The translations under genes were made by a program, and so were the position numbers. Below the pieces are notes generated by a model, which saw only the letters and a list, made by a program, of their open reading frames with translations, was not told where the DNA came from and did not search any database. 64,000 bases of DNA from positions 9,055-73,054 of the forward strand of contig CACXUM010000017.1 in NCBI GenBank assembly GCA_902770835.1, read 5' to 3'. This stretch comes from an uncultured Bacteroidia bacterium. GTDB lineage: Bacteria > Bacteroidota > Bacteroidia > Bacteroidales > F082. Positions 7,373 through 31,029 of this stretch are shown here, in pieces; position 1 is the first letter of the stretch, and each line of letters begins with the position of its first letter.

Positions 7373-7380
7373 TATTTTTG
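7373..7380 (+). promoter_or_regulatory. -7 promoter box TATTTTTG (ATPase gene)
   Basis: TAnnTTTG match 28 nt upstream of the ATG at 7408. Confidence 0.5.
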
Positions 7381-7407
7381 CAAGGTCAAGATAAAAACGG
7401 AGTCAGT

Positions 7408-8964
7408 ATGAGGAAAGAATTCAATGTCACAGGAAGTTGCAATCCGCAAAGACATTATATGGTTGATACGGAGAAACGCTTCAAAGCCGTTGAAAACCTG
7501 ATTGATAGAGGGAATTATTTCACCATCAACCGAGCACGGCAGTATGGGAAGACGACCATGCTGAACAAGATTTGGTTTAGATTATCGGACAAATATTTGG
7601 TCATCCCACTGAGTTTTGAAGGTTTGGGAGACGAGGCCTTTGCTAGTCCTGCGACTTTTGTCACAACATTCAAAAGGCAAATGGCGAGGCATCTTGTTTC
7701 ACTCCGTCAAAACGAGGCATTGATAGGGATTTGGCAAAACGGCAATGCTTCATCAATAGATGATTTGTCAGAGATTGTCACGGATTTTTGCAGAGCTTGT
7801 CCAAAACCCGTTGTGGTCACCATCGACGAAGTGGACAAGAGTAGCGACAATCAGTTGTTCATGAATTTTTTGGGCATGTTGCGCAACAAATACTTGGAAC
7901 GTGATAAAGAGGGCATGAACTATACTTTCCACAGCATCGTTCTCGCAGGCGTTTACGACATCAAGAACCTCAAACTGAGACTTCGTCCCGACGCTGAAAA
8001 GAAATACAATTCGCCTTGGAACATTGCCGCCGATTTCAACGTGGATATGACTTTCCATCCTGAGGAAATCGCCCAGATGCTCAATGATTACGAGAACGAT
8101 GTGCATTCGGGTATGGACATTAAGGCCATCAGCGAGGAGATCTACAAATACACAACGGGCTATCCTTATTTGGTGAGTGCGATTTGTAAGATTATCGATG
8201 AACGCTTGGAAGCGAAATGGACGCTTGACAACGTGCAGCAAGCCGTGAAAATCATCGCGATAGGCGAAAATGTCACCCTTATTGACGACCTCTCAAAGAA
8301 CATCGAGAACAACATTGAACTGAGAGATTTCCTCTTTTCCATCGTGGTCAACGGAGCGGAATACTCTTTTACAATGGTGGACCCCATTGTCAAACTGGCC
8401 AATATGTTCTCCTATATCCGCAAGAACCAACGTGGCAAGACAATAATCCACAACCTGATTTTCGAAGAGGCCTTGTTTATGTATTTCGGCAATAAGACCA
8501 TGCGCGAACAGGGGACAAAAATCTCTCCGTATGTGCTGAATTATGTTCAAAATGGCAAACTCAATATGGAGCACGTGGTCACCCGTTTCCGTGACCTTAT
8601 GCACGAGGAGTACCGCGAAAGCACCGAGCCTTTCCTCGAAAAGGAAGGCCGTCTGCTGTTTCTCACCTTCCTCAAACCCATCATCAACGGGATCGGGTTC
8701 TACTACGTGGAGCCGCAGACCCGCGACAACCGCCGCATGGACTTGGTGGTGACCTACGACAAGCAGGAGTATATCGTGGAATTGAAGATTTGGCATGGCG
8801 ACAAATACGAGGAACTTGGCCGCGACCAACTTTCAGGCTATCTCGCCACTCGCGGTATGGATGAAGGTTATTTGGTCACCTTCGACTTCTCGAAAAACAA
8901 ACAAGAAGCAGAACCTCAATGGATTGAGTGGAACGGAAAGCGGATTTTTGAGGTGATTGTTTGA
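7408..8964 (+). CDS. AAA-ATPase_like / PD-(D/E)XK (PDDEXK_9-type) fusion protein
   Basis: N-terminal NPQRHYMV and Walker-A-like RQYGKTT, with a C-terminal RMDLVV...YIVELKIW nuclease-like D..ExK motif. Start is placed at the first ATG after the promoter box. Confidence 0.7.
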   Translation: MRKEFNVTGSCNPQRHYMVDTEKRFKAVENLIDRGNYFTINRARQYGKTTMLNKIWFRLSDKYLVIPLSFEGLGDEAFASPATFVTTFKRQMARHLVSLRQNEALIGIWQNGNASSIDDLSEIVTDFCRACPKPVVVTIDEVDKSSDNQLFMNFLGMLRNKYLERDKEGMNYTFHSIVLAGVYDIKNLKLRLRPDAEKKYNSPWNIAADFNVDMTFHPEEIAQMLNDYENDVHSGMDIKAISEEIYKYTTGYPYLVSAICKIIDERLEAKWTLDNVQQAVKIIAIGENVTLIDDLSKNIENNIELRDFLFSIVVNGAEYSFTMVDPIVKLANMFSYIRKNQRGKTIIHNLIFEEALFMYFGNKTMREQGTKISPYVLNYVQNGKLNMEHVVTRFRDLMHEEYRESTEPFLEKEGRLLFLTFLKPIINGIGFYYVEPQTRDNRRMDLVVTYDKQEYIVELKIWHGDKYEELGRDQLSGYLATRGMDEGYLVTFDFSKNKQEAEPQWIEWNGKRIFEVIV

Positions 8965-9080
8965 CGAAATAGTTGAACGCCAAACAGACTGCACAGGGAG
9001 AAGGGGAATTGCTGTTGGATGGTGATAGGGTATGAAAAACTGAAGGATAGAAGAAAAAGATAAAGATAAATAGAAGATAC

Positions 9081-9117
9081 GAAAATAAAACGATGGAGAG
9101 TCACCCCTCCATCGTTT
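9081..9117 (-). terminator. Hairpin terminator after the small minus-strand ORF
   Basis: 11-bp stem AAACGATGGAG/CTCCATCGTTT followed by TATTTTC on the - strand. Confidence 0.4.
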
Positions 9118-9128
9118 AGCATTGCAAA

Positions 9129-9332
9129 TTACGCATCAACTTCAAATGATAACGTCTTTTTGCAAATGCTCTTTAAAAACCAACAACCTTGAAGTGCCAC
9201 AAAGAAATACTCATTGTTTTGAAAATAGCAGCCTTCGTTTGGGTTGGCACCGATTAATAATTTTGTGATTACCATAAAACTATGTTTTAGATAAGCATAT
9301 ACAAAGATATTGTTTTTTATGGGATATTGCAA
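9129..9332 (-). CDS. Hypothetical small protein (67 aa) in an AT-rich islet
   Basis: An ORF followed directly by a hairpin terminator. No promoter box or recognisable family was seen. Confidence 0.2.
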   Translation of the reverse strand: MQYPIKNNIFVYAYLKHSFMVITKLLIGANPNEGCYFQNNEYFFVALQGCWFLKSICKKTLSFEVDA

Positions 9333-9416
9333 TAGATTAAGCTTTCATATTGGATAATCGATATAAAATTACTTATAGGTTCTGATTTTTTTCCTCATAA
9401 TATGCAATTATTTTCC

Positions 9417-9424
9417 TACTTTTG
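9417..9424 (+). promoter_or_regulatory. -7 promoter box TACTTTTG (orphan lipoprotein)
   Basis: TAnnTTTG match upstream of the ATG at 9503. Confidence 0.45.
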
Positions 9425-9502
9425 CATCAGATAGAAGAGTTTTTTCGATTAGGTGATGCATTACGAATAAATAGCAGTCTGTATGATAAAACAAAAGAAA
9501 CT

Positions 9503-9982
9503 ATGAAGAAGTTCGTTCTCCTAAATATTGTGATTTGCATTTTCGGATTGATTGGATGCAATCATATTAATCAAAAGCAATCATTAACAGAGGATGTAGT
9601 TGATTTTAACCAATGGTATCTGAAAGAACATCCTAATAAAATCGCTGTTGCAACGTCCTTCATACCAACTGTTGATATCAATTATATTGATGGTTTATCA
9701 TTGGAGGAACTCATTATACAGAATTGTTATAAAGAAAAAACTACCTATACTTGTGAGGATGCGCTTGAATTTAGACGAGAGCTTAATGCAAATCATCATG
9801 TTTCATTTAAATTTGTGCCTGATAGTTCAAATTTGGCTAAAGCATATTGTTTGGAAGACCCTTCCCATTTCAAGAAATATAATAGCGAGTATTGTAACAA
9901 TGTGTGTATAAAGTATAAAGAAACTCTGCGTAAGGAAAATGAACAGAAAACCCAGGAAATATGGGATAAATATTTGGAGTAA
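9503..9982 (+). CDS. Hypothetical Cys-rich lipoprotein
   Basis: MKKFVLLNIVICIFGLIGC is a signal peptide with lipobox. The gene is AT-rich relative to its flanks. No family was recognised. Confidence 0.55.
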   Translation: MKKFVLLNIVICIFGLIGCNHINQKQSLTEDVVDFNQWYLKEHPNKIAVATSFIPTVDINYIDGLSLEELIIQNCYKEKTTYTCEDALEFRRELNANHHVSFKFVPDSSNLAKAYCLEDPSHFKKYNSEYCNNVCIKYKETLRKENEQKTQEIWDKYLE

Positions 9983-10057
9983 TTATTTAGGCAAGATTAA
10001 GTTGATTTCTTCAAATACTCATCTCAAAATATTTTGTGCATAGAGAAAGGCAAATCC

Positions 10058-10582
10058 TTAATCATACAACTCCACAAACTCATAGGAATTCCCCATAGCC
10101 TCCAAAAACTTGATAAAGTCCTCCTGGCTAATAATGATCGTCCCCGTGTTGTCATTGGGATGGAAGCTTAAGCGAGGAGCGTTCAAGAGGTTTTTGTCGA
10201 TGAAGAGGTGTACCTCGTGGTTCTCGTCGTTGATGAGGCCGAAGGGGGAGACGCTGCCGGGCTTCAGACCGAGGTATTTCTCCATGCGGGCCTCCGAGGC
10301 GAAGGTGAGCTTGCCCTGGTGCAGGCGCTGCTCGAGGTCGTGGATGTCCATTTGGTGCATGCACTCAAAGATGACGAGGTAGTGCTTGTTGCCCTTGTGG
10401 TTACGGAAAAACAGGTTCTTGCAGTGCGTGGCCTCGAACTTGCCCCAGTAGGCCAACGACTCCTCGATGGAGCCCAACGGCGGGTGGAACTTGATGTCGA
10501 AGTCGATACCGAGGCCGAGCAGGGTATCCACTACTTTCTGCTGCCGCTCACTCAAGGGTTGGTTTATTTCTGATGGTTTCAT
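10058..10582 (-). CDS. YbaK/prolyl-tRNA-synthetase-associated (aminoacyl-tRNA editing) domain protein
   Basis: HCKNLFFRN.KG..HYLV and GLKPGSVSPFGL motifs are typical of YbaK/ProX-like deacylases. Confidence 0.75.
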   Translation of the reverse strand: MKPSEINQPLSERQQKVVDTLLGLGIDFDIKFHPPLGSIEESLAYWGKFEATHCKNLFFRNHKGNKHYLVIFECMHQMDIHDLEQRLHQGKLTFASEARMEKYLGLKPGSVSPFGLINDENHEVHLFIDKNLLNAPRLSFHPNDNTGTIIISQEDFIKFLEAMGNSYEFVELYD

Positions 10583-21954: not shown

Positions 21955-22290
21955 ATGGACAAAAAGAGAAAGAAGAAAAACCTCGCGTTTTCACTTCTGT
22001 TGGCAACAGGAATGCTGTTCCCTTCTCATCTGCCTGCACAGGAACAAAACGATAGGCCGGGAGGTCTGTTTGGTGAAACTACCCCGACTGTTTCCGACGG
22101 CCTGATGCGCAGAAACGAAGGCACTGCTGGAGGCTATTTCACAGGGCAGGGTTTCGGAGCCACAAGCGGCAACATCACAGGCCAAACTTTTGGCGCACCT
22201 TTGAGCAGCGGATTGCTCGTCATGCTCGCGGCAGGTGCAGGTTATGCAACAATTAAATCAAGGAAAAAACAAAACAGAAAGGAAAAATGA
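21955..22290 (+). CDS. Small Gly-rich secreted protein with a C-terminal TM helix and basic tail
   Basis: N-terminal signal peptide (..HLPAQEQ), a repeated TGQ(G/T)FGA motif, and the C-terminus SGLLVMLAAGAGYATIKSRKKQNRKEK. Its stop overlaps the next ATG (ATGA). Confidence 0.55.
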   Translation: MDKKRKKKNLAFSLLLATGMLFPSHLPAQEQNDRPGGLFGETTPTVSDGLMRRNEGTAGGYFTGQGFGATSGNITGQTFGAPLSSGLLVMLAAGAGYATIKSRKKQNRKEK

Positions 22291-23891
22291 ACATGAAAAA
22301 GATTAGTATTTTCGTAACGGTATTGGCGTTTTTGGTAGCCCTGACGCAATGCAAAAAGGAACAAGCAACTCCTGCCAATGATGGCAAAAACTTTGACATC
22401 ACCTTGGACATCAAGAGCGGTAACGGCACAAGAATGGATGTGAACACAAGCACGGGCGAAGTCACATACGAGACTGGCGACGTGATTTATGTGGCCAGTG
22501 GTGGAACATTCATTGGCACGCTGACACACAACGGTACAAACTTCGCTGGCACCATCACCAACCCAACCGTGGGCGAACCACTTGACTTCTATTTCTTGGG
22601 CAATGTGACCCCAGCCGAAACCCTCACGGCGGGCACAACGACAACTTGTTCCGTGGTCATCAGCGACCAAACGGAGCATTTGCCCGTGATTGAATATGCG
22701 CCGTCCAACGAAACCTATAATTCGGGTGTGACCACTTTCACCGCCCATCTGCTCAACAAGTGTGCCTTGGTGAAGTTCAATGTGACGACTTCATCGGAGG
22801 CTGCTACTTGCATTACTGGGATGAAAAACAAGGTGACGGTGAGTTTTGCCGACAATACTTTGACCCACAGCCAGGAAGGTAACGGCGTGATCACTTTGCC
22901 TGCTGGCAGTGGAGAAAAGTGGGCTATTTTATTGCCTCAAGAGGCTTTGGAGGGAGGTCTTGCCTATTCCGAAGATGGAGATTATACTGGCACACGCGGT
23001 GCTGTTCCTGCTGTTTATGAGAATGGATACTTTACAGTGGGCATCGAAGTGAATGTGACAACTGAAGTAAACCCTGGTGAAGTTCCTGTTGGTGCTATAT
23101 GTGGGAAGTTCACTATCAATTCCGATGGAGACCAAGTGTATTTCTCGCAGGGGAATTTGCAATACATTGGTAGTGCAACCATACCTTATTGGAAGTTTGC
23201 CGAGAACCAATGGGATTATTTCGGTGACGTTAGTGCTGGCCAAAATGTTGACCGCGATCTGTTTGGCTGGGGCACCAGTGGTTGGAACAATGGGAATATG
23301 TATTACCAGCCATACGATACCGAGAGTTTTTGGGATAGTGAAACAGGTTATGGTTACGGCCCCACCGACGGGACGAACTACAACTATGATTTGACAGGCG
23401 ACTACGCCAATGCCGACTGGGGCGTTTACAATGCCATCAGCAATGGCGGCAACACACCAAACCAATGGCGCACTTTGACCCAGCCCGAATGGGAGTATAT
23501 TATCTTCTCACGCAATACGCCTTCGGGTATTCGTTATGCCAAAGGTATCGTGAATGGAGTGAACGGTGTTATTCTGCTGCCAGATAATTGGAGTGCTTCA
23601 GTTTATGCTTTGAACTACACCAACAAGTACAGCGCACCTTTCAACACGAACGAAATCACATCAGAGAATTGGGCCTTGATGGAAAACAACGGTGCTGTCT
23701 TCTTGCCCGCTGCGGGCAGCCGCCAAGTGGGTGGTAACAGTGAAAGCCACGGATGCTATTGGTCAACCTCTTCCTTTTTCAGTGCATCTTTCTCGTACCG
23801 CGTGTTCTTCGATGATTCTGCCCTCGTCATGGACTGCATCGACCGCTTTGTAGGTCAAAGTGTGCGCCTCGTTGCCCCAGTCGAGAATTGA
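22287..23891 (+). CDS. Lipoprotein: fimbrillin-like N-terminal domain plus FISUMP/DUF1566-like C-terminal domain
   Basis: Lipobox ALTQC. The N-terminal half resembles fimbrillin-family beta domains. The C-terminal half has WGTSGW, NQWRTLTQPEWEYI, AVFLPAAGSR and GCYWSTS motifs. Confidence 0.6.
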   Translation: MNMKKISIFVTVLAFLVALTQCKKEQATPANDGKNFDITLDIKSGNGTRMDVNTSTGEVTYETGDVIYVASGGTFIGTLTHNGTNFAGTITNPTVGEPLDFYFLGNVTPAETLTAGTTTTCSVVISDQTEHLPVIEYAPSNETYNSGVTTFTAHLLNKCALVKFNVTTSSEAATCITGMKNKVTVSFADNTLTHSQEGNGVITLPAGSGEKWAILLPQEALEGGLAYSEDGDYTGTRGAVPAVYENGYFTVGIEVNVTTEVNPGEVPVGAICGKFTINSDGDQVYFSQGNLQYIGSATIPYWKFAENQWDYFGDVSAGQNVDRDLFGWGTSGWNNGNMYYQPYDTESFWDSETGYGYGPTDGTNYNYDLTGDYANADWGVYNAISNGGNTPNQWRTLTQPEWEYIIFSRNTPSGIRYAKGIVNGVNGVILLPDNWSASVYALNYTNKYSAPFNTNEITSENWALMENNGAVFLPAAGSRQVGGNSESHGCYWSTSSFFSASFSYRVFFDDSALVMDCIDRFVGQSVRLVAPVEN

Positions 23892-23975: not shown

Positions 23976-24265
23976 GCGGCTTGCCGTGGTACGACAGCCC
24001 TACAGCCTATCCGTTGTAGGGCTGTCGCATTGCGGCAGCCGCGTTTTGTGTACGTGCTTTTGATGGGTTTCGCCCCGCTGGGGCTTTGTTCGGAATTTGT
24101 TTTTTGTTTGGCAGGGGTGAAATGCAATGGAACCCCTGCCTACTATCCGCCGTCACTCCGTGACTTGGGCTGTGGCACGAAGGAACCCCAAAGGGGTGAC
24201 AGGATATTAGGCAGGCGGTGGAGCATGGCGGAACCCCTGCCGATGAAAACAACGCGAACCAACCC
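23976..24265. repeat. Highly structured ~290-bp repeat, copy 1
   Basis: Aligns by eye with 24333-24621 at about 90% identity or better over the first 265 bp. Contains a nested 66-nt hairpin and at least four shorter hairpins. Confidence 0.85.
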
Positions 24266-24332
24266 TGTTCTTCCGCATTTGCAATTCGGAAGCCGTGAGT
24301 ATCAGCATTTGCAATGCGGGAATGAATGATAT

Positions 24333-24621
24333 GCGGCTGCCGTGGTACGACAGCCCTACAGCCTATCCGTTGTAGGGCTGTCGCATTGCGGTAGCCGCAT
24401 TTTGTGTACGTGCTTTTGATGGGTTTCGCCCCGCTGGGGCTTTGTTCGGGAATTTGTGTTTTGTCGGCAGGGGTTCCATTGCATTTCATCCCTGCCTACT
24501 ATCCGCCGTCACTCCGTGACTTGGGTTTGGGCACGGAGGAACCCCAAAGGGGTGAGAGGATATTAGGCAGGCGGTGGAGCATGGCGGAACCCCTGCCGGA
24601 AAATGGCAAGAACCCAACCAT
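24333..24621. repeat. Highly structured ~290-bp repeat, copy 2
   Basis: Direct repeat of copy 1 with a period of 357 bp. The loop of the GGCAGGGG/CCCCTGCC hairpin is in the opposite orientation. Confidence 0.85.
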
Positions 24622-24684: not shown

Positions 24685-24978
24685 ATGTGTACACGTACAA
24701 TCCATATCAATGACAGTTTGATGGAGCAAGTCAGACCTATGTTCCCCAACGATGATGTTTTGCAGCGGTGGTTGGAGCAACAAATGGAGTCTATCTTGAT
24801 GAATTATTCGGCTCAACATAAGCCGAAACCTCCTTGTTCCTACACGGATGAGGAAATGTATGCCATCGTCAAGGAACGGTTGCAAAGTCTTGAAAAAGGA
24901 ACAGCCGAACTTGTTGATGGCGAAGAGGTCTTCTCACAAATTCGTAAACGCTATGGCTTTAAGGCATCAGTGGCATAG
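24685..24978 (+). CDS. Hypothetical 97-aa protein, antitoxin-like N-terminus
   Basis: Has its own promoter box. The N-terminus TRTIHINDSLMEQ resembles VapB-type antitoxin starts. No partner gene is adjacent. Confidence 0.5.
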   Translation: MCTRTIHINDSLMEQVRPMFPNDDVLQRWLEQQMESILMNYSAQHKPKPPCSYTDEEMYAIVKERLQSLEKGTAELVDGEEVFSQIRKRYGFKASVA

Positions 24979-25065: not shown

Positions 25066-26289
25066 ATGTCCGCCCCAAAATTCATAGCAGACCGTATTTT
25101 TTCGCTTTCGAAGGAAAACCTTTCCTCGACGGTGATGCGCTTGGCCGTCACGAGCGTGGCTTTGGCCATTATCGTGATGCTGATTTCGTGGGCCGTCGTG
25201 GTGGGTTTCAAGAACCAGATTCGAGGCAAGGTGATTGGTTTTGTAGCCCCGATTCATGTGCAGTCGTTGGACAAGAACGAATCTGTGGAGGAAACGCCGT
25301 TTGTGTTGGATTCGTTGTTAATCAGCCGATTAAATGCTATTGAGGGCATTGAGCATTATCAGATGGTGGCCAACAAGGCAGGCATGATTAAGACCGACGA
25401 CGAAATTCAGGGCGTGGTGCTGAAAGGCGTGGACGAAAACTACGACTGGACTTATTTTGGGAACTGCCTCTTGAAAGGGAAAACACCTGAATATCAATCG
25501 GGTGAACGCTCCAATGAGGTGTTGGTTTCCAAGGCTATAGCCAACAAAATGCTTTTGGATGTGGGCGACGATGTGCGTGTGTGGTTCATCGACAAGGACA
25601 TGCAGGCACGAGGCAGGAAATTCAACGTTACAGGCATTTTTGAGACGGGCCTCACCGAGTTTGATGAGCGTTTCGTTTTCGCCGATTTGAACCAAATCCG
25701 CAAGTTGAATGGTTGGGAAGACAACGAAGCGGGATTGTTGGAAATTGCGCTGAAAGACGGTTTCGATGCCAACCAAATCAATGAGAAACTGTATTATGCC
25801 CTGCCTTCTGAGTTGGCTTCCTACACCGCCCGCGATAGCAACCCTCAAGTATTCGATTGGCTTGATTTGCTTGACACCAATGTCTGGCTTATCATGGCTT
25901 TGATGTTGCTGGTAGCAGGCATTACGGTCATCAGTATGTTGCTGATTATCATTATTGAGCGCACTTCCACCATTGGCTTGCTGAAAGCGATGGGCGCGAG
26001 CAACAAGTTCGTCCGCGAGGTGTTTCTGCGTCGTTCATTGCGCATTTTGATGATTGGTATGTTGATTGGCAATGTTATTGGTTTGGGTTTCTGCCTCTTG
26101 CAAAAATACACAGGACTCATCAAACTTGATGCAGCGACTTATTATCTTTCATCCGTGCCCATCGAATTGCACTTTACTACCGTGATACTCATCAATTTGG
26201 GAACTTTAATTCTTTGGGTCTTGATGCTGTTGATTCCGACTTCAGTCATCAATCGCATCAGCCCTACCAAGTCGATTCGGTTTGAATGA
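25066..26289 (+). CDS. ABC transporter permease, FtsX/LolC-LolE family
   Basis: 407 aa with an N-terminal TM helix, a large periplasmic loop, and three C-terminal TM helices (FtsX-like domain). Confidence 0.8.
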   Translation: MSAPKFIADRIFSLSKENLSSTVMRLAVTSVALAIIVMLISWAVVVGFKNQIRGKVIGFVAPIHVQSLDKNESVEETPFVLDSLLISRLNAIEGIEHYQMVANKAGMIKTDDEIQGVVLKGVDENYDWTYFGNCLLKGKTPEYQSGERSNEVLVSKAIANKMLLDVGDDVRVWFIDKDMQARGRKFNVTGIFETGLTEFDERFVFADLNQIRKLNGWEDNEAGLLEIALKDGFDANQINEKLYYALPSELASYTARDSNPQVFDWLDLLDTNVWLIMALMLLVAGITVISMLLIIIIERTSTIGLLKAMGASNKFVREVFLRRSLRILMIGMLIGNVIGLGFCLLQKYTGLIKLDAATYYLSSVPIELHFTTVILINLGTLILWVLMLLIPTSVINRISPTKSIRFE

Positions 26290-26330
26290 GGAAAATTTCA
26301 ATAATTCATGCGTGAAATGCCAAAAAGGTT

Positions 26331-26338
26331 TATTTTTG
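26331..26338 (+). promoter_or_regulatory. -7 promoter box TATTTTTG (DUF3791/DUF3990 cassette)
   Basis: TAnnTTTG match 20 nt upstream of the ATG at 26358. Confidence 0.5.
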
Positions 26339-26357
26339 CAAAATCAATATTGAAGTT

Positions 26358-26582
26358 ATGAGCAAGCTAGAGCATGATAAATTGGATTATTTGGTGGCTA
26401 TCATTAGTGATTTTGCCCTCAAGTTTTCTTTGACACCTTCTCAAGCCTATCGTTATTTGTCTAATTATAAGGCGATTGACTTTCTGATTCGTAATTATGA
26501 TATTGAGCATACATTGTCATTTGAGAATGTTGTGGACGATGTTTCGGTGTTTTGTCGCAATCGGGGAGGGGCTTTGGTATGA
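26358..26582 (+). CDS. DUF3791-like small helical protein (copy 1)
   Basis: 74 aa. Family assigned from memory of the conserved DUF3791-DUF3990 gene pairing. Its stop overlaps the next ATG (ATGA). Confidence 0.55.
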   Translation: MSKLEHDKLDYLVAIISDFALKFSLTPSQAYRYLSNYKAIDFLIRNYDIEHTLSFENVVDDVSVFCRNRGGALV

Positions 26583-27058
26583 TACTCTATCACGGATCGA
26601 ATGTCGAGATTGATAGGATAGACTTGTCCAAATCCAATGTAGGCAAGGATTTCGGTGTTGGTTTTTATCTGACTCCCAACCGCGACCATGCGTTGGGACA
26701 GGCTCAGCGCAAGATAGAAATTTTTTCGTTTGGTGTTCCCTCTTTGACCGCCTTTTCTTTTGATGAAAAAGAACTTCAAAATGGCGAACTTGCTGTAAAA
26801 GTGTTTGATGATTACACCTTGGAATGGGCTGAATTTGTGCTGATGAATAGGCAAAGCAGCAGTAGAATTCCGCTGCACGAATACGATATTGTTATTGGCC
26901 CTGTTGCAGATGATACTGTTGGCTATCAGATTCGTAGGTTGTTGGGGCAACTGATTACCATGGAGCAGTTTATGAAGGAATTGAAATACCCGAAAGAGAA
27001 GAGCATCCAATACTTTTTTGGTACAGAAAAATCAATAAAATACCTCAAGAAGATATGA
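26579..27058 (+). CDS. DUF3990-like protein with a PARP-like H-Y-E motif pattern (putative ADP-ribosyltransferase)
   Basis: Contains LYHGS (His5), FGVGFYLT (Tyr30) and HEYDIVIG (Glu101). Compare PARP motifs HGS / FGKGIYFA / NEYIVY. ATGA overlaps occur at both ends. Confidence 0.55.
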   Translation: MILYHGSNVEIDRIDLSKSNVGKDFGVGFYLTPNRDHALGQAQRKIEIFSFGVPSLTAFSFDEKELQNGELAVKVFDDYTLEWAEFVLMNRQSSSRIPLHEYDIVIGPVADDTVGYQIRRLLGQLITMEQFMKELKYPKEKSIQYFFGTEKSIKYLKKI

Positions 27059-27276
27059 CGAAAGAATCATTTATGATTGAAGAGATGACCAAAGAAATGA
27101 TAGTGCTTTTAATGGAAAAGCGAGGTGTTTCCATGGAAGAGGCTGTGAATCTCGTCTATACTTCAGAAACTTTCTCAAAACTGTGCAATCTGTCTACTGG
27201 TTTATATTTCCAAAGTACGCCATACGTGTACGAATACCTTGAAAAAGAACTGATTACAGGAAAATTAACTGAATGA
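27055..27276 (+). CDS. DUF3791-like small helical protein (copy 2)
   Basis: 73 aa. Translationally coupled to the DUF3990-like gene by an ATGA overlap. Confidence 0.5.
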   Translation: MTKESFMIEEMTKEMIVLLMEKRGVSMEEAVNLVYTSETFSKLCNLSTGLYFQSTPYVYEYLEKELITGKLTE

Positions 27277-27280
27277 TTAT

Positions 27281-27733
27281 ATGATGAAAGACTTTACCAT
27301 TCAACCGCTGAAAGGCTACGGCGAAATACCTTTCGGAATGACACTTGACGATACGGTCAAGTTGCTGAACATGCCCGACTTCTATGAGGAGTTGAACGAC
27401 ATGGAAGAGACGGGCAACCGTTCCATCTATTACGAATATGATGATATTCAGACGAATATCTATTTCGAAGGCATCACCAAGTCGGTGGTGGCTTGTTTCG
27501 AGACGGAGAACGAGGCTGCCACATTGTTTGGCAAGAAAGTGTTCGATCTCAAGAAGGTAGATGTCGTCAAGTTGATGAAAGACAATGGCTTCAAGGACAT
27601 GGAGGAAGAGACCGAGGACGGCGAACTTCGCGTTTCATTCGAAGATGCCATGATGGACTTCTTCTTCGATGGCGACGTGATGACCGCAGTAAGTTGGGGC
27701 GTACTCGTTGACGAACAAGGGGAAATAATATGA
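27281..27733 (+). CDS. Hypothetical acidic 150-aa protein (immunity-protein-like)
   Basis: Starts 4 nt after the previous stop. Very acidic (many D/E). No family was recognised. Confidence 0.55.
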   Translation: MMKDFTIQPLKGYGEIPFGMTLDDTVKLLNMPDFYEELNDMEETGNRSIYYEYDDIQTNIYFEGITKSVVACFETENEAATLFGKKVFDLKKVDVVKLMKDNGFKDMEEETEDGELRVSFEDAMMDFFFDGDVMTAVSWGVLVDEQGEII

Positions 27734-27738
27734 TTGCC

Positions 27739-27827
27739 TCACGCAGAATGCGCAGAATACGCTGAACCTGTCGGGCGCAAAATAGGCATCGCATCGCGAT
27801 TCATATAATTCTGCGAATTCTGCGTGA
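27739..27827. repeat. 20-bp inverted repeat hairpin (TCACGCAGAATGCGCAGAAT / ATTCTGCGAATTCTGCGTGA)
   Basis: Arms at 27739-27758 and 27808-27827 are reverse complements with 1-2 mismatches. Each arm has GCAGAAT tandemly duplicated. Confidence 0.8.
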
Positions 27828-27861: not shown

Positions 27862-28512
27862 ATGAGACTTCAGCAGAAATACGACGCTTTCGTGGCCTAT
27901 TTCTCGGAACACATGCCCATTGCCGAGTCGGAGTTGCATTACAAAGACCCGTATCAGTTGCTGGTGGCGGTGATTCTCTCGGCGCAGTGTACGGACAAGC
28001 GAGTGAACATGACTACGCCTGCACTGTTCCAGCGTTTCCCGACGGCGCACGACATGGCCGCATCGACAGTGGATGAGATTTATTCCTACATCAAAAGCAT
28101 TTCCTATCCTAACAACAAGGCTAAGAACTTGTTAGGCATGGCACAGACTTTGGTCAGTGATTTTGGTGGCGTTGTGCCTGACAATCTGGATGATATGCAG
28201 AAATTGCCCGGCGTGGGTCGTAAGACGGCCAATGTGATGATGGCGGTGGCTTTCAAACAACCGGCCATGCCTGTCGATACACATGTGTTTCGTGTTTCCA
28301 ACCGCATTGGTCTGACCCAAAACTCGAAAAACGTCCTCGAAACGGAGAAGGTCTTGGTAGCACATCTGCCTCAAAATGTGCTCTCTAAAGCCCATCATTG
28401 GCTCATCCTTCATGGTCGTTATGTCTGCCTTGCCCGCAAACCGAAGTGCGACGAGTGCGGGATTACTGCAATTTGTGATTTTTACCAAAAGAAACAGAAA
28501 AAAGAACAATAA
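27862..28512 (+). CDS. nth: Endonuclease III
   Basis: HhH-GPD motif LPGVGRKTANV and a C-terminal 4Fe-4S cluster motif C..ARKPKCDECGITAIC. Confidence 0.9.
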   Translation: MRLQQKYDAFVAYFSEHMPIAESELHYKDPYQLLVAVILSAQCTDKRVNMTTPALFQRFPTAHDMAASTVDEIYSYIKSISYPNNKAKNLLGMAQTLVSDFGGVVPDNLDDMQKLPGVGRKTANVMMAVAFKQPAMPVDTHVFRVSNRIGLTQNSKNVLETEKVLVAHLPQNVLSKAHHWLILHGRYVCLARKPKCDECGITAICDFYQKKQKKEQ

Positions 28513-28513
28513 A

Positions 28514-28972
28514 ATGGAAGAGTATTCAGAAAAACCAAAGAAAAGAGGTATCGGAAGAAAAATCCTCACCACTTTAAGCATCATCCTTGTTTTGGCTGTG
28601 GCGGGCTTTGTTTTCTTCAAGTTTTTTTATGTGTTCGGTAGCGGCGTGAAGGCTGGCGAACTTAACTTGTTCGTTTACAAGGGCTACGTCTTCAAAACCT
28701 ACGAGGGTAGACTGATTCAGGCGGGCTACAACTCGCAGAACAGCAACGCGACCATCCAATCGAATGAGTTCAATTTTTCGGTGAAAGACGAGAATGTGGC
28801 CCGACAATTGGAGCGTTGCGCAGGAAAGATAGTTGAACTGCACTACAAGGAGTATCTCGGCACCTTGCCGTGGCGTGGTATGACCAAATATGTGGTCGAC
28901 AGCGTTTATTCGGTTACCTCGGTAAACGAATCTCGCGATATGCCGATTTCAGTGCCTTTGGAAGTGCTTTAG
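28514..28972 (+). CDS. Hypothetical membrane-anchored protein
   Basis: The ATG lies 1 nt after the nth stop. Basic N-terminus, one TM helix, then a ~110-aa soluble domain. Confidence 0.6.
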   Translation: MEEYSEKPKKRGIGRKILTTLSIILVLAVAGFVFFKFFYVFGSGVKAGELNLFVYKGYVFKTYEGRLIQAGYNSQNSNATIQSNEFNFSVKDENVARQLERCAGKIVELHYKEYLGTLPWRGMTKYVVDSVYSVTSVNESRDMPISVPLEVL

Positions 28973-31029
28973 TTGCTTCTCGAAATCTCCAATTTGCTGA
29001 TTTCCACTTCGTTGTTTTCCGAAATGATTTCAATCCAAGTGTTGTCCTCGCTGAACCACTTGTATTGCGAACCGATGCGGAATAGGAAGGTTTTTTCTTC
29101 CTCTGCGGCTGCGATTGGCAACACAAAACCGCCGTTTTTGCCGCCTGAGCCTCCGAAGGAGACAATCATCGGGAAGGTCTTTTCGGGGTGCGGGTTGCGT
29201 ACCTTGATAATGATATAGTTGGAACGGCGCACAGCAACCTCAATCTTGTTGAAATCAAACCGTTGCGCTTGACCGGCGGCCAATAACATGGGTTCGCTGT
29301 TCAACTCATAAAGTTTGTTTTGCTCGATGATTTCGCTGATGCGGGCAATCATTTCGGTAGGGTAGGTCTCCAAACCAAGTTCCTCAGCCTTGGTGTAGGC
29401 TTCTATTGCTTTGTCGAAGGTGTTGGTCTTGAAATGGCCGTCGCCCTCCTTGATGAAGGCGTTGTATTGTGCGCGTAAGGCTGCGATACGGTCGTTTTCA
29501 GCACGCTCGGCGGTCGCTAATTGGGTTGTCGCGGTTGGGTCGTTGGGCTTGAAAATCAAAGCCGATTGGAAGTGGGTGATGGCTTCGGCGAACTTTTCAG
29601 CGGTCATGGCTTGGTCGCCGGCACTCATGGCTTTGCTGTAGTTGGCTTCCAACTCGGCGGCCATTTGAGCGAAGATGCCATCGATTTCCTGAATCTTTGC
29701 CGTTGCGGTGGCATTGCCTTCGTCGAAGGCAACCACTTCTTGGTATTTCAGTTTGGCATTGGCATAATCCTGTTGGGCGAACAATTCGCCAGCGGCATCC
29801 AACATGCTCTTAATGGTAGCCTGTCGCTCGGCCTCCGCTGCGGCCAATTCGGCTTGACGTCTGGCCTCTTCTTCAGCGGCTATGCGGGCTGCTTCTTCTG
29901 CCGCCAAACGAGCGGCTTCTTGTTCTGCGGCAATTCTGGCGGCCTCTTGCTCAGCAGCGATTCTTGCGGCTTCAGCCTCAGCAGCCAACCTTGCAGCTTC
30001 GGCTTCAGCGGCCAAGCGAGCGGCTTCTTGCTCAGCGGCAATGCGAGCTGCCTCAGCCTCGGCTGCCAAACGCGCCGCTTCTTGTTCGGCGGCGATGCGT
30101 GCGGCTTCCTCGGCATCTTGTTGGGCAATGAGTGGGTCTAAGCGGGCAATCATTTCGGTAGCGTAAGCGTCATCCGTGACCACCGCTAATGCACTCTGGT
30201 ACTGGGCTTTAGCCTCCTTGTAAGCCTTGCTTTCATACAGACGGTCGGCCTCGGCAATGATGCCGTTGTAGCGGTCGGCAATACCTTTGGCGGTTTGATA
30301 ATCGTTTTTCAAGGTGTTGGCTTCTATGTCGTTGGGGAAAAGTTCGAGGGCTTGGCTGAGTTTGTCGATGGCGGCCTCATAGTTTTTGCGCAGGCCAAAC
30401 TGACGGGCTGCCTCCATCAAATTATCGAAGCGCGTCATTTTCTCCGTATAAAGTTGCTTTTTCTGTCGGGCTTCGGCGAGTTTTTCTTTGGGAAGTCTGT
30501 CGTTGGGGAAAATGCCGATGGCGGTTTCAAACTGCATGATGGCCGCATCGAAATTCTCCTCTGCCAAAAGGCTTTCTCCTTGGCTCATGGCCGTGTCGAA
30601 AGCGACTTGCTTGTCTTGGCGTTCCTTTAGGATTGCCCGCACTGCATCTGCCTGACCGCCAACATATTTGTCCTCGGGGAAAACCTTCAAAGCCTGCTCA
30701 TATTCCGACAAAGCCTCCTCATATTTCTGCTGGCCGTAGTATTGGTCGCCGGCATCCAAATGGGCGTAGAAAACCTCCTGTCGGGCACCGTCTTCCTGGA
30801 TTTTCTTCACCGTCTCGTCAAGTTTCTTCTTGGCGGTTGCGTCGCCCGACTTCTGCTTCAAAGCCATCTCATAATAAGTCTTCGCGCTGATGTAGTCTTT
30901 GGCTGAAAACTTGTCGTTGCCCTTCTTCATCAGCGACTCGTAGGATTCGGCGTTTTGGGCTTGCATAATGTTGGCGTTCAATATGATAGAAGCACCAAAC
31001 ATCATGGAAAATATGAGTTTTTTGTTCAT
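28969..31029 (-). CDS. TPR-repeat protein with a central Ala/Glu-rich 9-aa tandem repeat
   Basis: Signal peptide, multiple TPR-like units (Y..A...Y..AL...P.D), and a central (AAR[IL]AAE[QA]E)n block. Confidence 0.75.
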   Translation of the reverse strand: MNKKLIFSMMFGASIILNANIMQAQNAESYESLMKKGNDKFSAKDYISAKTYYEMALKQKSGDATAKKKLDETVKKIQEDGARQEVFYAHLDAGDQYYGQQKYEEALSEYEQALKVFPEDKYVGGQADAVRAILKERQDKQVAFDTAMSQGESLLAEENFDAAIMQFETAIGIFPNDRLPKEKLAEARQKKQLYTEKMTRFDNLMEAARQFGLRKNYEAAIDKLSQALELFPNDIEANTLKNDYQTAKGIADRYNGIIAEADRLYESKAYKEAKAQYQSALAVVTDDAYATEMIARLDPLIAQQDAEEAARIAAEQEAARLAAEAEAARIAAEQEAARLAAEAEAARLAAEAEAARIAAEQEAARIAAEQEAARLAAEEAARIAAEEEARRQAELAAAEAERQATIKSMLDAAGELFAQQDYANAKLKYQEVVAFDEGNATATAKIQEIDGIFAQMAAELEANYSKAMSAGDQAMTAEKFAEAITHFQSALIFKPNDPTATTQLATAERAENDRIAALRAQYNAFIKEGDGHFKTNTFDKAIEAYTKAEELGLETYPTEMIARISEIIEQNKLYELNSEPMLLAAGQAQRFDFNKIEVAVRRSNYIIIKVRNPHPEKTFPMIVSFGGSGGKNGGFVLPIAAAEEEKTFLFRIGSQYKWFSEDNTWIEIISENNEVEISKLEISRSN
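29870..30125. repeat. 27-bp coding tandem repeat (~9 units) inside the TPR gene
   Basis: The protein reads AARIAAEQE/AARLAAEAE about nine times, and the DNA units are near-identical. Confidence 0.8.

Follow-up and report, generated by a model that had tools for sequence, protein, structure and literature searches.

A three-gene DUF3791-DUF3990 cassette of Bacteroidales with a predicted ADP-ribosyltransferase: a candidate toxin or defence module

Introduction

Does a cluster of small, low-GC genes in a Bacteroidales chromosome encode a toxin or defence module, and which of its genes belong to that module? The question is raised by the 64,000-nt stretch of DNA analysed here (the window; contig CACXUM010000017.1 of an uncultured Bacteroidia bacterium, apparently a Bacteroidales member of the rumen), in which four short genes follow one another behind a promoter-like box. 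An initial annotation had read them as a DUF3791-DUF3990-DUF3791 cassette with an acidic fourth partner, and had seen in the central protein a PARP-like H-Y-E signature of ADP-ribosyltransferases (ARTs). Both the ART assignment of DUF3990 and its status as a defence candidate are already catalogued: DUF3990 has been placed in the Pfam ART clan (PMC7955679), and PDC-M13, which is abundant in rumen genomes (3324 calls in one rumen survey), is one of 145 phage defence candidates predicted by 'guilt-by-embedding' (Payne et al., bioRxiv 10.1101/2024.01.29.577857). No literature characterising DUF3990 or DUF3791 was found.

Results

An Accessory Segment of Three Coupled Genes

The four open reading frames described earlier are all present on the forward strand. 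The first, g1 (26358-26582), encodes a DUF3791 protein of 74 aa, g2 (26579-27058) a DUF3990 protein of 159 aa, and g3 (27055-27276) a 73-aa member of a small family without a Pfam model, while the fourth gene (27281-27733) encodes the acidic protein of 150 aa. As had been described, the first three genes are joined by ATGA start/stop overlaps (26579-26582 for g1/g2 and 27055-27058 for g2/g3), and the ATG of the fourth follows g3 after a 4-nt spacer, TTAT. The low GC content was likewise borne out, as 26300-27279 has a GC content of 0.382, which ranks among the lowest 1.3% of 980-nt windows, whereas the window as a whole has 0.493; the GC3 values are 0.37-0.45 in the cassette genes and 0.59-0.64 in the flanking genes.

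Comparison of filled and empty alleles revealed the extent of the segment. In cassette-free strains, 59 nt of native intergenic sequence stand in place of the 980 nt at 26300-27279 (forward strand), which consist of a 58-nt leader followed by the three translationally coupled genes; in the alignment, identity between the two alleles ends at 26299 and resumes at about 27280. Presence or absence of the cassette varies between strains with 98.5-100% identical flanks, and its junctions in the sister species are the same as here. The site has a lolE-like permease gene on one side and a core gene on the other, with no R-M, BREX or DISARM system around it. No terminal repeats or target duplications were seen at the junctions, and an Rfam search of the cassette returned no RNA family. 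The cassette is accessory and mobile; it is an operon of three genes, self-contained and acquired horizontally, with a putative promoter of its own.

At this locus, inheritance has been vertical. The dN/dS ratio is 0.03-0.09 across the three genes (0.035-0.047 for g1 and 0.027-0.039 for g3), and the dS of the cassette (0.63-1.15) is comparable to that of the flanks, which indicates that, from the split of the sister species onward, the cassette has co-diverged with the chromosome under strong purifying selection. A gene set of lasting use to the host could show such co-divergence just as a selfish or defence element could.

The promoter box claimed ahead of gene 1 was also recovered. It is a Bacteroidetes-type TAnnTTTG box, TATTTTTG (26331-26338, forward strand), inside the acquired segment and 20 nt before the g1 ATG. 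Among 79 related loci, 43 have a TAnnTTTG box no more than 100 nt ahead of gene 1, compared with 4.6 +/- 2.0 expected from shuffles and 4 of 79 in a coding control. Transcription of g1-g2-g3, and by now of the downstream host gene too, presumably depends on this box. A scan for sigma-70 promoters and terminators is uninformative in a Bacteroidales genome.

The Acidic Gene Belongs to the Host

The acidic gene (27281-27733, forward strand), which had been counted as the fourth member of the unit, is a conserved host core gene and plays no part in the module, so the unit comprises three genes. Its product (35 D+E against 13 K+R, net charge -22) is 100% identical in strains with and without the cassette, and in the cassette-free strains the gene lies 69 nt after the permease gene. 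Its GC3 of 0.64 is like that of the flanks. The protein has 1129 homologues, the best 120 listed being 86-100% identical, and neither PADLOC nor Pfam returned a match to it; no relatives of the gene were found beside the other 79 related cassettes. It is probably co-transcribed with the cassette now.

Conserved Linkage, Permutations and Fusions

Of 80 loci, each from a different species, 78 keep the order and strand of g1-g2-g3, mostly with 4-nt overlaps, and the remaining two are contig ends. This arrangement is far above chance, and the tight linkage of small co-occurring genes matches that of type II toxin-antitoxin systems. In three of the 80 loci g2 is disrupted, with g1 and g3 intact. 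Permuted or fused variants were detected in three phyla: a Moraxella plasmid shows the permuted order g2-g3-g1, a Bacteroides uniformis plasmid carries a g3~g1 fusion upstream of g2, and 12 of the 19 proteins of at least 190 aa among the best 150 cluster representatives are g2~g3 fusions. Because the three genes co-occur across phyla in permuted or fused form, their products probably form one complex, and the natural fusions predict that it is ternary. In one cassette subgroup an XRE-type HTH gene lies immediately upstream; there is no HTH gene in the cassette of the window.

The Small Proteins g1 and g3

The label DUF3791-DUF3990-DUF3791 held for its first two members. While g1 matches DUF3791 (PF12668) with an E-value of 1.5e-21 (76.6 bits, cut-off 25), g3 has no Pfam match at E<=0.1, DUF3791 included, and its family profile gave no alignment with that of the g1 family in hhalign (probability 1.5%); the third part of the label is therefore not demonstrated. 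Just two of 32 g3-family members matched DUF3791, and weakly (E 0.0024). Judged by these profiles, g3 is a family separate from DUF3791, whose members may stand alone, be joined to g1-like proteins or form the C-terminal domain in DUF3990 proteins.

The invariant residues are Y47, H51, T52 and C66 in g1, and E9, S37, T39, Y57 and E65 in g3. An all-helical structure of four helices was predicted for g1 by AF2, with low confidence (pLDDT 68.8) because the alignment had only 16 homologues, and no match with an E-value below 1 came from a fold search with this low-confidence model. Pfam, PDB-chain profile and g1 fold searches recognised neither a DNA-binding nor an enzymatic domain in g1 or g3. 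Weak resemblances of g3 to UBA-like/TAP_C segments and of g1 to an IclR HTH segment were seen and are leads only.

The Fold and Candidate Active Site of g2

The match of g2 to DUF3990 (PF13151) covers residues 1-157 of 159 (E 5.5e-42, 143.5 bits, cut-off 32.2). The nearest sequence family is ART-PolyVal (PF18760), which g2 matches below the gathering threshold (E 0.0033, 18.6 bits, threshold 31.2), as do 62 of 71 g2 relatives (sub-threshold, best E 1.3e-6); the N-terminal HG[ST] and G-x-Y motifs (residues 1-42) are common to both. Searches of PDB chain sequences with profiles of g2, g1, g3 and the acidic gene returned nothing significant.

Comparison of an AlphaFold model with ART folds, which the initial annotation had proposed, supported the ART assignment. 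The AF2 model of g2 reaches a pLDDT of 95.2, and ART-fold proteins make up 19 of its 20 best Foldseek matches in the PDB. A RES toxin ranks first (E 3.6e-4), followed by VPA0770, ParT, diphtheria toxin, KptA and PARP1, and tankyrase and Arr are also among the matches; the one match not counted as ART-fold is a cyanophage pre-ejectosome protein at rank 8. The PDB matches are moderate (TM 0.42-0.46, best E 3.6e-4). In a viral structure library, the best match was a DUF3990 homologue (TM 0.82) and the next were ART-PolyVal proteins. By its predicted structure, the fold class of g2 is that of an ADP-ribosyltransferase, and g2 is a member of the ART superfamily, in the H-Y-[E/D] branch and nearest to ART-PolyVal.

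The PARP-like part of the earlier description, by contrast with the ART-type fold, is limited to motifs. LYHGS (residues 3-7), FGVGFYLT (25-32) and HEYDIVIG (100-107) are all present, and g2 has in common with PARP and diphtheria toxin the HG[ST] on strand 1 and the FGxG[FI]Y on strand 2, with an acid before strand 5 as a candidate third element. However, the fold matches to these proteins are weak (ranks 10-25), and the candidate acid of g2 is Asp103, not Glu. When the DUF3990 profile was aligned by hhalign with the PARP1 catalytic domain (sequence verified against the PDB), only the 16-residue FGxGxY motif was aligned, with a probability of 4%. The PARP model (PF00644) matched one of the 71 g2 relatives, with an E-value of 0.086. 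By sequence profile, g2 is not a member of the PARP family.

Analysis of conservation altered the proposed H-Y-E signature in its last member. The invariant residues of g2 are H5, D24, F25, Y30, W83, R91 and D103 (H5, Y30 and D103 scored in 71 diverse relatives), and G6, G28 and F29 are conserved in 90% or more of the 71. The His and Tyr of the signature thus stood, but Glu101 proved variable: among 90 aligned sequences (g2 and 89 relatives), only 9 have E at position 101, against 30 with D and 13 with N, and close relatives carry G, P, H, T or S there. In the AF2 model, H5 lies in strand 2-7 and Y30 in strand 29-32, and D103 is directly N-terminal of strand 104-108. The active-site candidates would be an H-Y-D triad, H5/Y30/D103, rather than H-Y-E, the part of D103 being suggested by its position; conservation and strand order point to it as the putative catalytic acid.

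Genomic Context and Likeness to Known Systems

The three adjacent, co-oriented genes match the PADLOC models PDC-M13A (g1, E 5.7e-27), PDC-M13B (g2, E 1.7e-41) and PDC-M13C (g3, E 3.7e-18) in the same architecture, although no R-M, BREX or DISARM system surrounds this copy; g2 additionally matches PDC-M10A. One related copy sits between hsdM and hsdS in a type I R-M operon, on small non-mobilisable C. botulinum plasmids others adjoin the replication gene, and another adjoins parA on a Bacteroides plasmid. A homologue was found on 88 plasmids, and phage records also contain homologues, one of them a solo copy in Geobacillus virus E3. Sister strains carry Abi_2, HEPN/NTase, ParE and PIN modules in the same chromosomal neighbourhood. 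The PDC-M13 matches, the plasmid rep/par and type I R-M contexts and the use of DUF3990 as a C-terminal toxin domain in Rhs effectors make the toxin or defence reading of the initial annotation plausible. In the survey of co-occurrence and defence islands that it had proposed, the triad is kept, and no recurrent neighbour or island signal was found among 128 flanking proteins. These immediate neighbours, from 78 genomes, comprise 183 Pfam families and are overwhelmingly unrelated housekeeping proteins, with few defence genes.

Among named systems, RES-Xre and ParT-ParS provide the best solved-structure matches of the g2 model (9r35, 6gw6, 6d0i), and their toxins are likewise small, have the ART fold and are encoded in compact operons together with a neutralising partner. 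However, the signature of g2 is H-Y-D, not R-E-S or the ParT arrangement, its two partners belong to unrelated families, and no RES Pfam match was found in g2 or its 71 relatives. DarT-DarG also has an ART-fold toxin within a toxin-antitoxin or defence operon, and DarT shares a Pfam clan with DUF3990. No DarT match was found, and no macrodomain antitoxin of the DarTG kind: g1 is a DUF3791 protein, g3 and the acidic protein have no Pfam match, and a hydrolase-like domain is absent from g1 and g3. ART-PolyVal proteins, which are the nearest viral fold matches after DUF3990 itself, are domains of giant injected polyvalent proteins of phages and conjugative elements, whereas DUF3990 here is a free-standing protein of about 160 aa with two dedicated small partners. 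Similarly, Rhs/T6SS effectors (Serratia Rhs5, Enterobacter RhsA) carry the same Pfam domain at the toxin tip, followed by a predicted immunity gene, but these are secreted fusions with unrelated immunity proteins, while g2 is cytoplasmic and stand-alone and is accompanied by g1 and g3.

Discussion

We favour, with a probability of roughly 0.55, the reading that the cassette is a gated ART toxin, that is, a conflict module of the toxin-antitoxin or abortive-infection type with g1 and g3 as bound subunits. In the proposed mechanism, the NAD+ site of g2 would most likely be formed by His5 and the DFGxGFY30 loop, and Asp103, which borders the fifth strand on its N-terminal side, would replace the canonical Glu. 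As small obligate subunits, g1 and g3 would bind g2 and either inhibit it or determine its specificity. Release of g2 would follow a trigger, for instance infection by a phage or the element's loss, after which the enzyme may ADP-ribosylate an essential target or consume NAD+, with toxicity as the expected outcome. Several observations sit uneasily with the gated-toxin reading: a covalent g2~g3 fusion misfits a classical labile antitoxin, the canonical catalytic Glu is absent, the fold matches are moderate, and the neighbours are mostly housekeeping genes.

A bolder version, which we hold only tentatively, is that the cassettes represent a mechanistically new and widespread class of ART immune or toxin systems. 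In such systems the gate on an H-Y-D transferase would be an auto-inhibitory sensor in two pieces (free, self-fused or enzyme-fused), and neither a macrodomain nor an Xre repressor nor a degradable antitoxin. The logic of a two-piece sensor is analogous to that of fused toxin-antitoxin sensors such as CapRel.

The cassette could also serve pure addiction in the manner of type II toxin-antitoxin systems, with g2 as the toxin and g1 and/or g3 as labile antitoxin, stabilising the carrier DNA without antiviral function. The compact and translationally coupled operon suits this role, as do the copies beside the C. botulinum plasmid replication gene and the Bacteroides plasmid parA, the homologue on 88 plasmids, and the three loci in which only g2 is disrupted. 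We nevertheless regard pure addiction as unlikely, since g2~g3 fusions are hard to square with antitoxin turnover, strong purifying selection has acted on the chromosomal copy ever since the sister species separated, and some copies lie inside type I R-M operons, which is the basis of PDC-M13.

Two further readings appear improbable to a similar degree. In the first, g2 would be an offensive or counter-defence ART of mobile elements that modifies host proteins or nucleic acids to the element's benefit, with g1 and g3 as targeting or chaperone subunits; the same role has been proposed for the ART-PolyVal domains of phage polyvalent proteins. Its closeness to ART-PolyVal, the homologues in phage records and the many plasmid copies would be explained in this way, but most copies, this one included, are chromosomal islets amid housekeeping genes without mobile-element genes nearby, and the cassette is inherited vertically here. 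In the second, the three proteins would be the subunits of a stable holoenzyme with a non-toxic cellular function, such as Arr-like ADP-ribosylation of small molecules, an RNA 2'-phosphotransferase-like activity or regulatory mono-ADP-ribosylation. Arr also has an H-Y-D signature, and the H-Y-D rather than H-Y-E triad of g2, its partial fold matches to KptA and Arr, the fused subunits, the long vertical retention under purifying selection and the mostly non-defence neighbours are all consistent with an enzyme of this kind. Such an enzyme would not be expected to be patchy among near-identical strains, foreign in composition and scattered over unrelated contexts, and the use of DUF3990 as an Rhs toxin tip and the copies embedded in R-M systems also speak against it.

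The four-gene module of the initial annotation, in which the acidic protein would act as immunity protein or antitoxin to a PARP-like H-Y-E enzyme, was suggested by the 4-nt spacing behind g3 and the net charge of the protein, but it is refuted by the cassette presence/absence comparison, and we reject it. The host-like GC3 of the acidic gene, its absence beside the other cassettes, its lack of PADLOC and Pfam matches and the variability of Glu101 also speak against it.

Gut and rumen Bacteroidales and Clostridia very commonly carry DUF3990 triads. The present analysis refines the target to a three-gene unit with H5, Y30 and D103, not E101, as the candidate key residues, and natural isogenic strains with and without the cassette exist, which allow comparison of phenotypes. 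If g2 is an active ART held by two dedicated subunits, the cassettes would represent a new regulatory design among ART toxins and candidate antiviral systems.

Extent of the Cassette

At the locus, a forward-strand run of g1 (26358–26582, 74 aa), g2 (26579–27058, 159 aa), g3 (27055–27276, 73 aa) and the acidic gene g4 (27281–27733, 150 aa) lies between a MacB/FtsX-type permease gene (25066–26289) on the g1 side and the endonuclease III gene nth (27862–28512) on the g4 side. A putative Bacteroidetes-type promoter box, TAnnTTTG (TATTTTTG, 26331–26338), precedes g1, ATGA start/stop overlaps join g1 to g2 and g2 to g3, and 4 nt separate g3 from the g4 start. GC content of 26300–27279 is low (0.382 against 0.493 in the window, within the lowest 1.3% of equal-sized windows). 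The initial annotation's description of the sequence was accurate. Additionally, a 16-nt inverted repeat (88% complementary, arms 26338–26353 and 26401–26416) brackets the g1 start codon, where it might serve as an operator or fold into an RNA structure covering the start; another of 20 nt (95% complementary, arms 27739–27758 and 27808–27827, 49 nt apart) lies between g4 and nth.

The four genes had been read as one module with g4 as an acidic immunity partner. Comparison among strains revealed that the unit consists of three genes. Among contigs encoding a g4 protein 100% identical to that of the window, the cassette is present in L001 and L002 and absent from L003 and L005–L008, in which g4 begins 69 nt past the permease stop codon; L009–L013, with a 91% g4 orthologue, also lack it. 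Filled and empty alleles are identical up to 26299 and again from ~27280, and 980 nt of the window stand where empty alleles have 59 nt of native intergenic sequence, so the cassette carries its own 58-nt leader, promoter box included. GC3 is 0.37–0.45 in g1–g3, 0.64 in g4 and 0.59–0.61 in flanking genes. The best 120 of 1129 g4 homologues are 86–100% identical; among the g2 relatives listed, the closest shares 96% and the remainder at most 86%. Of 80 related loci in different species, L025 alone has a g4-like protein beside the cassette, and L025 is in effect the window's organism (99% identity, uncultured rumen Bacteroidales genome RUG390). Searches of g4 against Pfam, NCBIfam, PADLOC, PHROG and PDB sequences gave no match. 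Because g4 is identical with or without the cassette, has host-like GC3 and does not accompany other cassettes, the four-gene version is refuted and g4 is a host gene. Its native upstream region has been lost in the cassette-bearing allele, and it is probably transcribed by read-through from the cassette promoter. The initial observation is real, with its 3' end misdrawn and one of its three key residues wrong.

The Central Protein g2

A Pfam search assigned g2 to DUF3990 (E = 5.5e-42), a family already placed in the ADP-ribosyltransferase (ART) clan (PMC7955679), with a sub-threshold ART-PolyVal match over residues 1–42; ART-PolyVal is matched by 62 of 71 diverse g2 relatives (best E = 1.3e-6). 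AlphaFold predicted the structure with confidence (pLDDT 95.2, pTM 0.89), and ART-fold proteins make up 19 of the model's 20 best PDB matches, including RES toxins (E = 3.6e-4), VPA0770, ParT, diphtheria toxin, KptA and PARP1; the remaining one, at rank 8, is a cyanophage pre-ejectosome protein. Tankyrase and Arr rank lower. TM-scores of these best matches are only 0.42–0.46. Against a viral structure library, the model's first match was a DUF3990 homologue (TM 0.82), followed by ART-PolyVal proteins; searching the g2 sequence against solved structures detected nothing. These matches indicate that the ART-type fold first proposed is broadly right. The suggested PARP likeness does not extend beyond one motif, as hhalign aligned DUF3990 with PARP1 over FGxGxY alone (probability 4%).

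H5, D24, F25, Y30, W83, R91 and D103 are invariant in the 71 relatives. The His and Tyr of the H-Y-E triad assigned earlier are therefore retained, but the position of its Glu101 may hold D, N, E, G, P, H, T or S. The invariant acid is Asp103, immediately before strand 104–108 of the model, and judged from ART strand order it would occupy the catalytic-acid position, giving the putative signature H-Y-D. Arr likewise has H-Y-D.

The Probable Partners g1 and g3

Although the cassette had been labeled DUF3791-DUF3990-DUF3791, only g1 belongs to DUF3791 in Pfam (invariant Y47, H51, T52 and C66); g3 represents a separate family lacking a Pfam model (invariant E9, S37, T39, Y57 and E65), and no homology was detectable between the two families.

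Separate g1, g2 and g3 occur in the window and on C. botulinum plasmid pCLI, adjoining a rep gene, and the order g2, g3, g1 occurs on a Moraxella plasmid between hsdM and hsdS. A g3~g1 fusion of 147 aa lies upstream of g2 on a B. uniformis plasmid, adjoining parA, and on a faecal phage-like contig. In metagenomic contigs L108, L109 and L110, g1 is followed by a g2~g3 fusion of 224–255 aa, while Geobacillus virus E3 has a solo g2. Of the 150 top-ranking cluster representatives, 19 are proteins of at least 190 aa, and 12 of these are g2~g3 fusions. Both kinds of fusion argue that g1, g2 and g3 form one complex, in which g3 would act as a domain of the enzyme.

In one subgroup, an XRE-type HTH gene (HTH_3, E = 1.5e-9), decayed in some copies, lies directly upstream of g1. 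At locus L044 it encodes 75 aa (727–954) and stops 2 nt before g1, forming a four-gene version; it is truncated in L049, and only its last ~71 nt are left in L045.

Conservation, Mobility and History

The order g1-g2-g3 on one strand was found at 78 of 80 loci, mostly with 4-nt overlaps, the other two being contig ends. A TAnnTTTG box lies within 100 nt upstream of g1 at 43 of 79 loci (4.6 ± 2.0 in shuffles, 4 of 79 in the coding control). In one subgroup from unrelated genomic contexts, DNA homology runs from ~71 nt before g1 to 0–10 nt past the g3 stop, limits that point to a mobile unit of ~1 kb whose ends are sharp; neither flanking repeats nor recombinase genes were seen there. No defence-island signal emerged among the 128 immediate neighbours, which are highly varied (183 Pfam families, each at most four times) and include very few proteins linked to defence. 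Two divergent triads stand back to back in one Prevotella genome (L093, 3824–5722). In L027, L049 and L075, g2 seems disrupted (split or N-terminally truncated ORF) beside intact g1 and g3, which could reflect toxin inactivation or assembly error.

Sister species L014 and L019 (permease 88–90% identical) carry the cassette at the identical site with identical junctions, while the closer relative L009 (94%) and even some same-species strains (98.5–99%) lack it. The dS of g1–g3 (0.63–1.15) is similar to that of flanking genes (0.84–1.18), and dN/dS is 0.03–0.09 in each gene, which indicates that the cassette is old here and has co-diverged with the chromosome under strong purifying selection. 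The presence/absence polymorphism is most simply explained by homologous recombination in the flanks.

Other Features of the Window

Strains differ in what lies between namZ and the permease gene (L003, L005, L009, L014 and L019), with Abi_2, HEPN plus nucleotidyltransferase, ParE, PIN or DUF4160/DUF2442 modules occupying this stretch. In the window, a 97-aa ORF (24685–24978) weakly matches Unstab_antitox; in L005 its counterpart precedes a ParE toxin gene absent from the window, so the ORF may be an orphan antitoxin. Within this strain-variable region, a ~261-nt GC-rich element occurs twice in direct orientation (23982–24598; copies 90% identical, 356 nt apart). It is full of internal palindromes, gave only sub-threshold hairpin (miRNA-model) matches in Rfam and resembles repeated extragenic palindromic or MITE-like sequences. 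Still in this region, upstream of the repeats, two overlapping ORFs (21955–23891; 111 and 534 aa) had no Pfam or PADLOC match. The lowest-GC stretch (~8850–10300, 0.31) contains a 186-aa ORF (9422–9982) with a hydrophobic segment near its N-terminus and adjoins a 528-aa ORF (7378–8964) without a PADLOC match. On the reverse strand, 28969–31029 encodes a TPR-like protein of 686 aa in which AEAARIAAEQEAARLAAE-type repeats form a long run; the gene is kept beside the cassette locus in relatives.

Interpretation

The fold and the defence-candidate status anticipated by the initial annotation are already catalogued by Pfam and PADLOC; its functional interpretation is plausible. In PADLOC, g1, g2 and g3 all match the phage defence candidate PDC-M13; g2 has a second match, to PDC-M10. 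The 145 PDC systems are candidates predicted from their embedding in BREX, DISARM and type I R-M loci ('guilt-by-embedding'), and in rumen genomes PDC-M13 is one of the commonest calls. In Serratia and Enterobacter, DUF3990 also stands at the C-terminus of Rhs effectors as a putative toxin domain. A literature search found no experimental characterization of DUF3990, DUF3791, PDC-M13 or PDC-M10.

The evidence best supports a three-subunit module around an ART-fold enzyme, g2, with a putative H-Y-D site, which two obligate small partners, g1 and g3, would gate or direct; its activity, toxicity, trigger and target we infer. Being compact, coupled, accessory, plasmid-borne and sometimes in R-M operons, the cassette resembles toxin-antitoxin and abortive-infection systems in genetic behaviour, and its domain is common to polymorphic toxins. 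That g3 is simply a labile antitoxin becomes less likely in view of the g2~g3 fusions, which favour an auto-inhibitory or specificity subunit. A pure addiction module, mobile-element counter-defence and a benign holoenzyme are less probable alternatives. For this three-subunit module, the analysis provides a corrected gene set, a corrected candidate catalytic triad, fusion evidence for a ternary complex, and natural strains that carry or lack the cassette.
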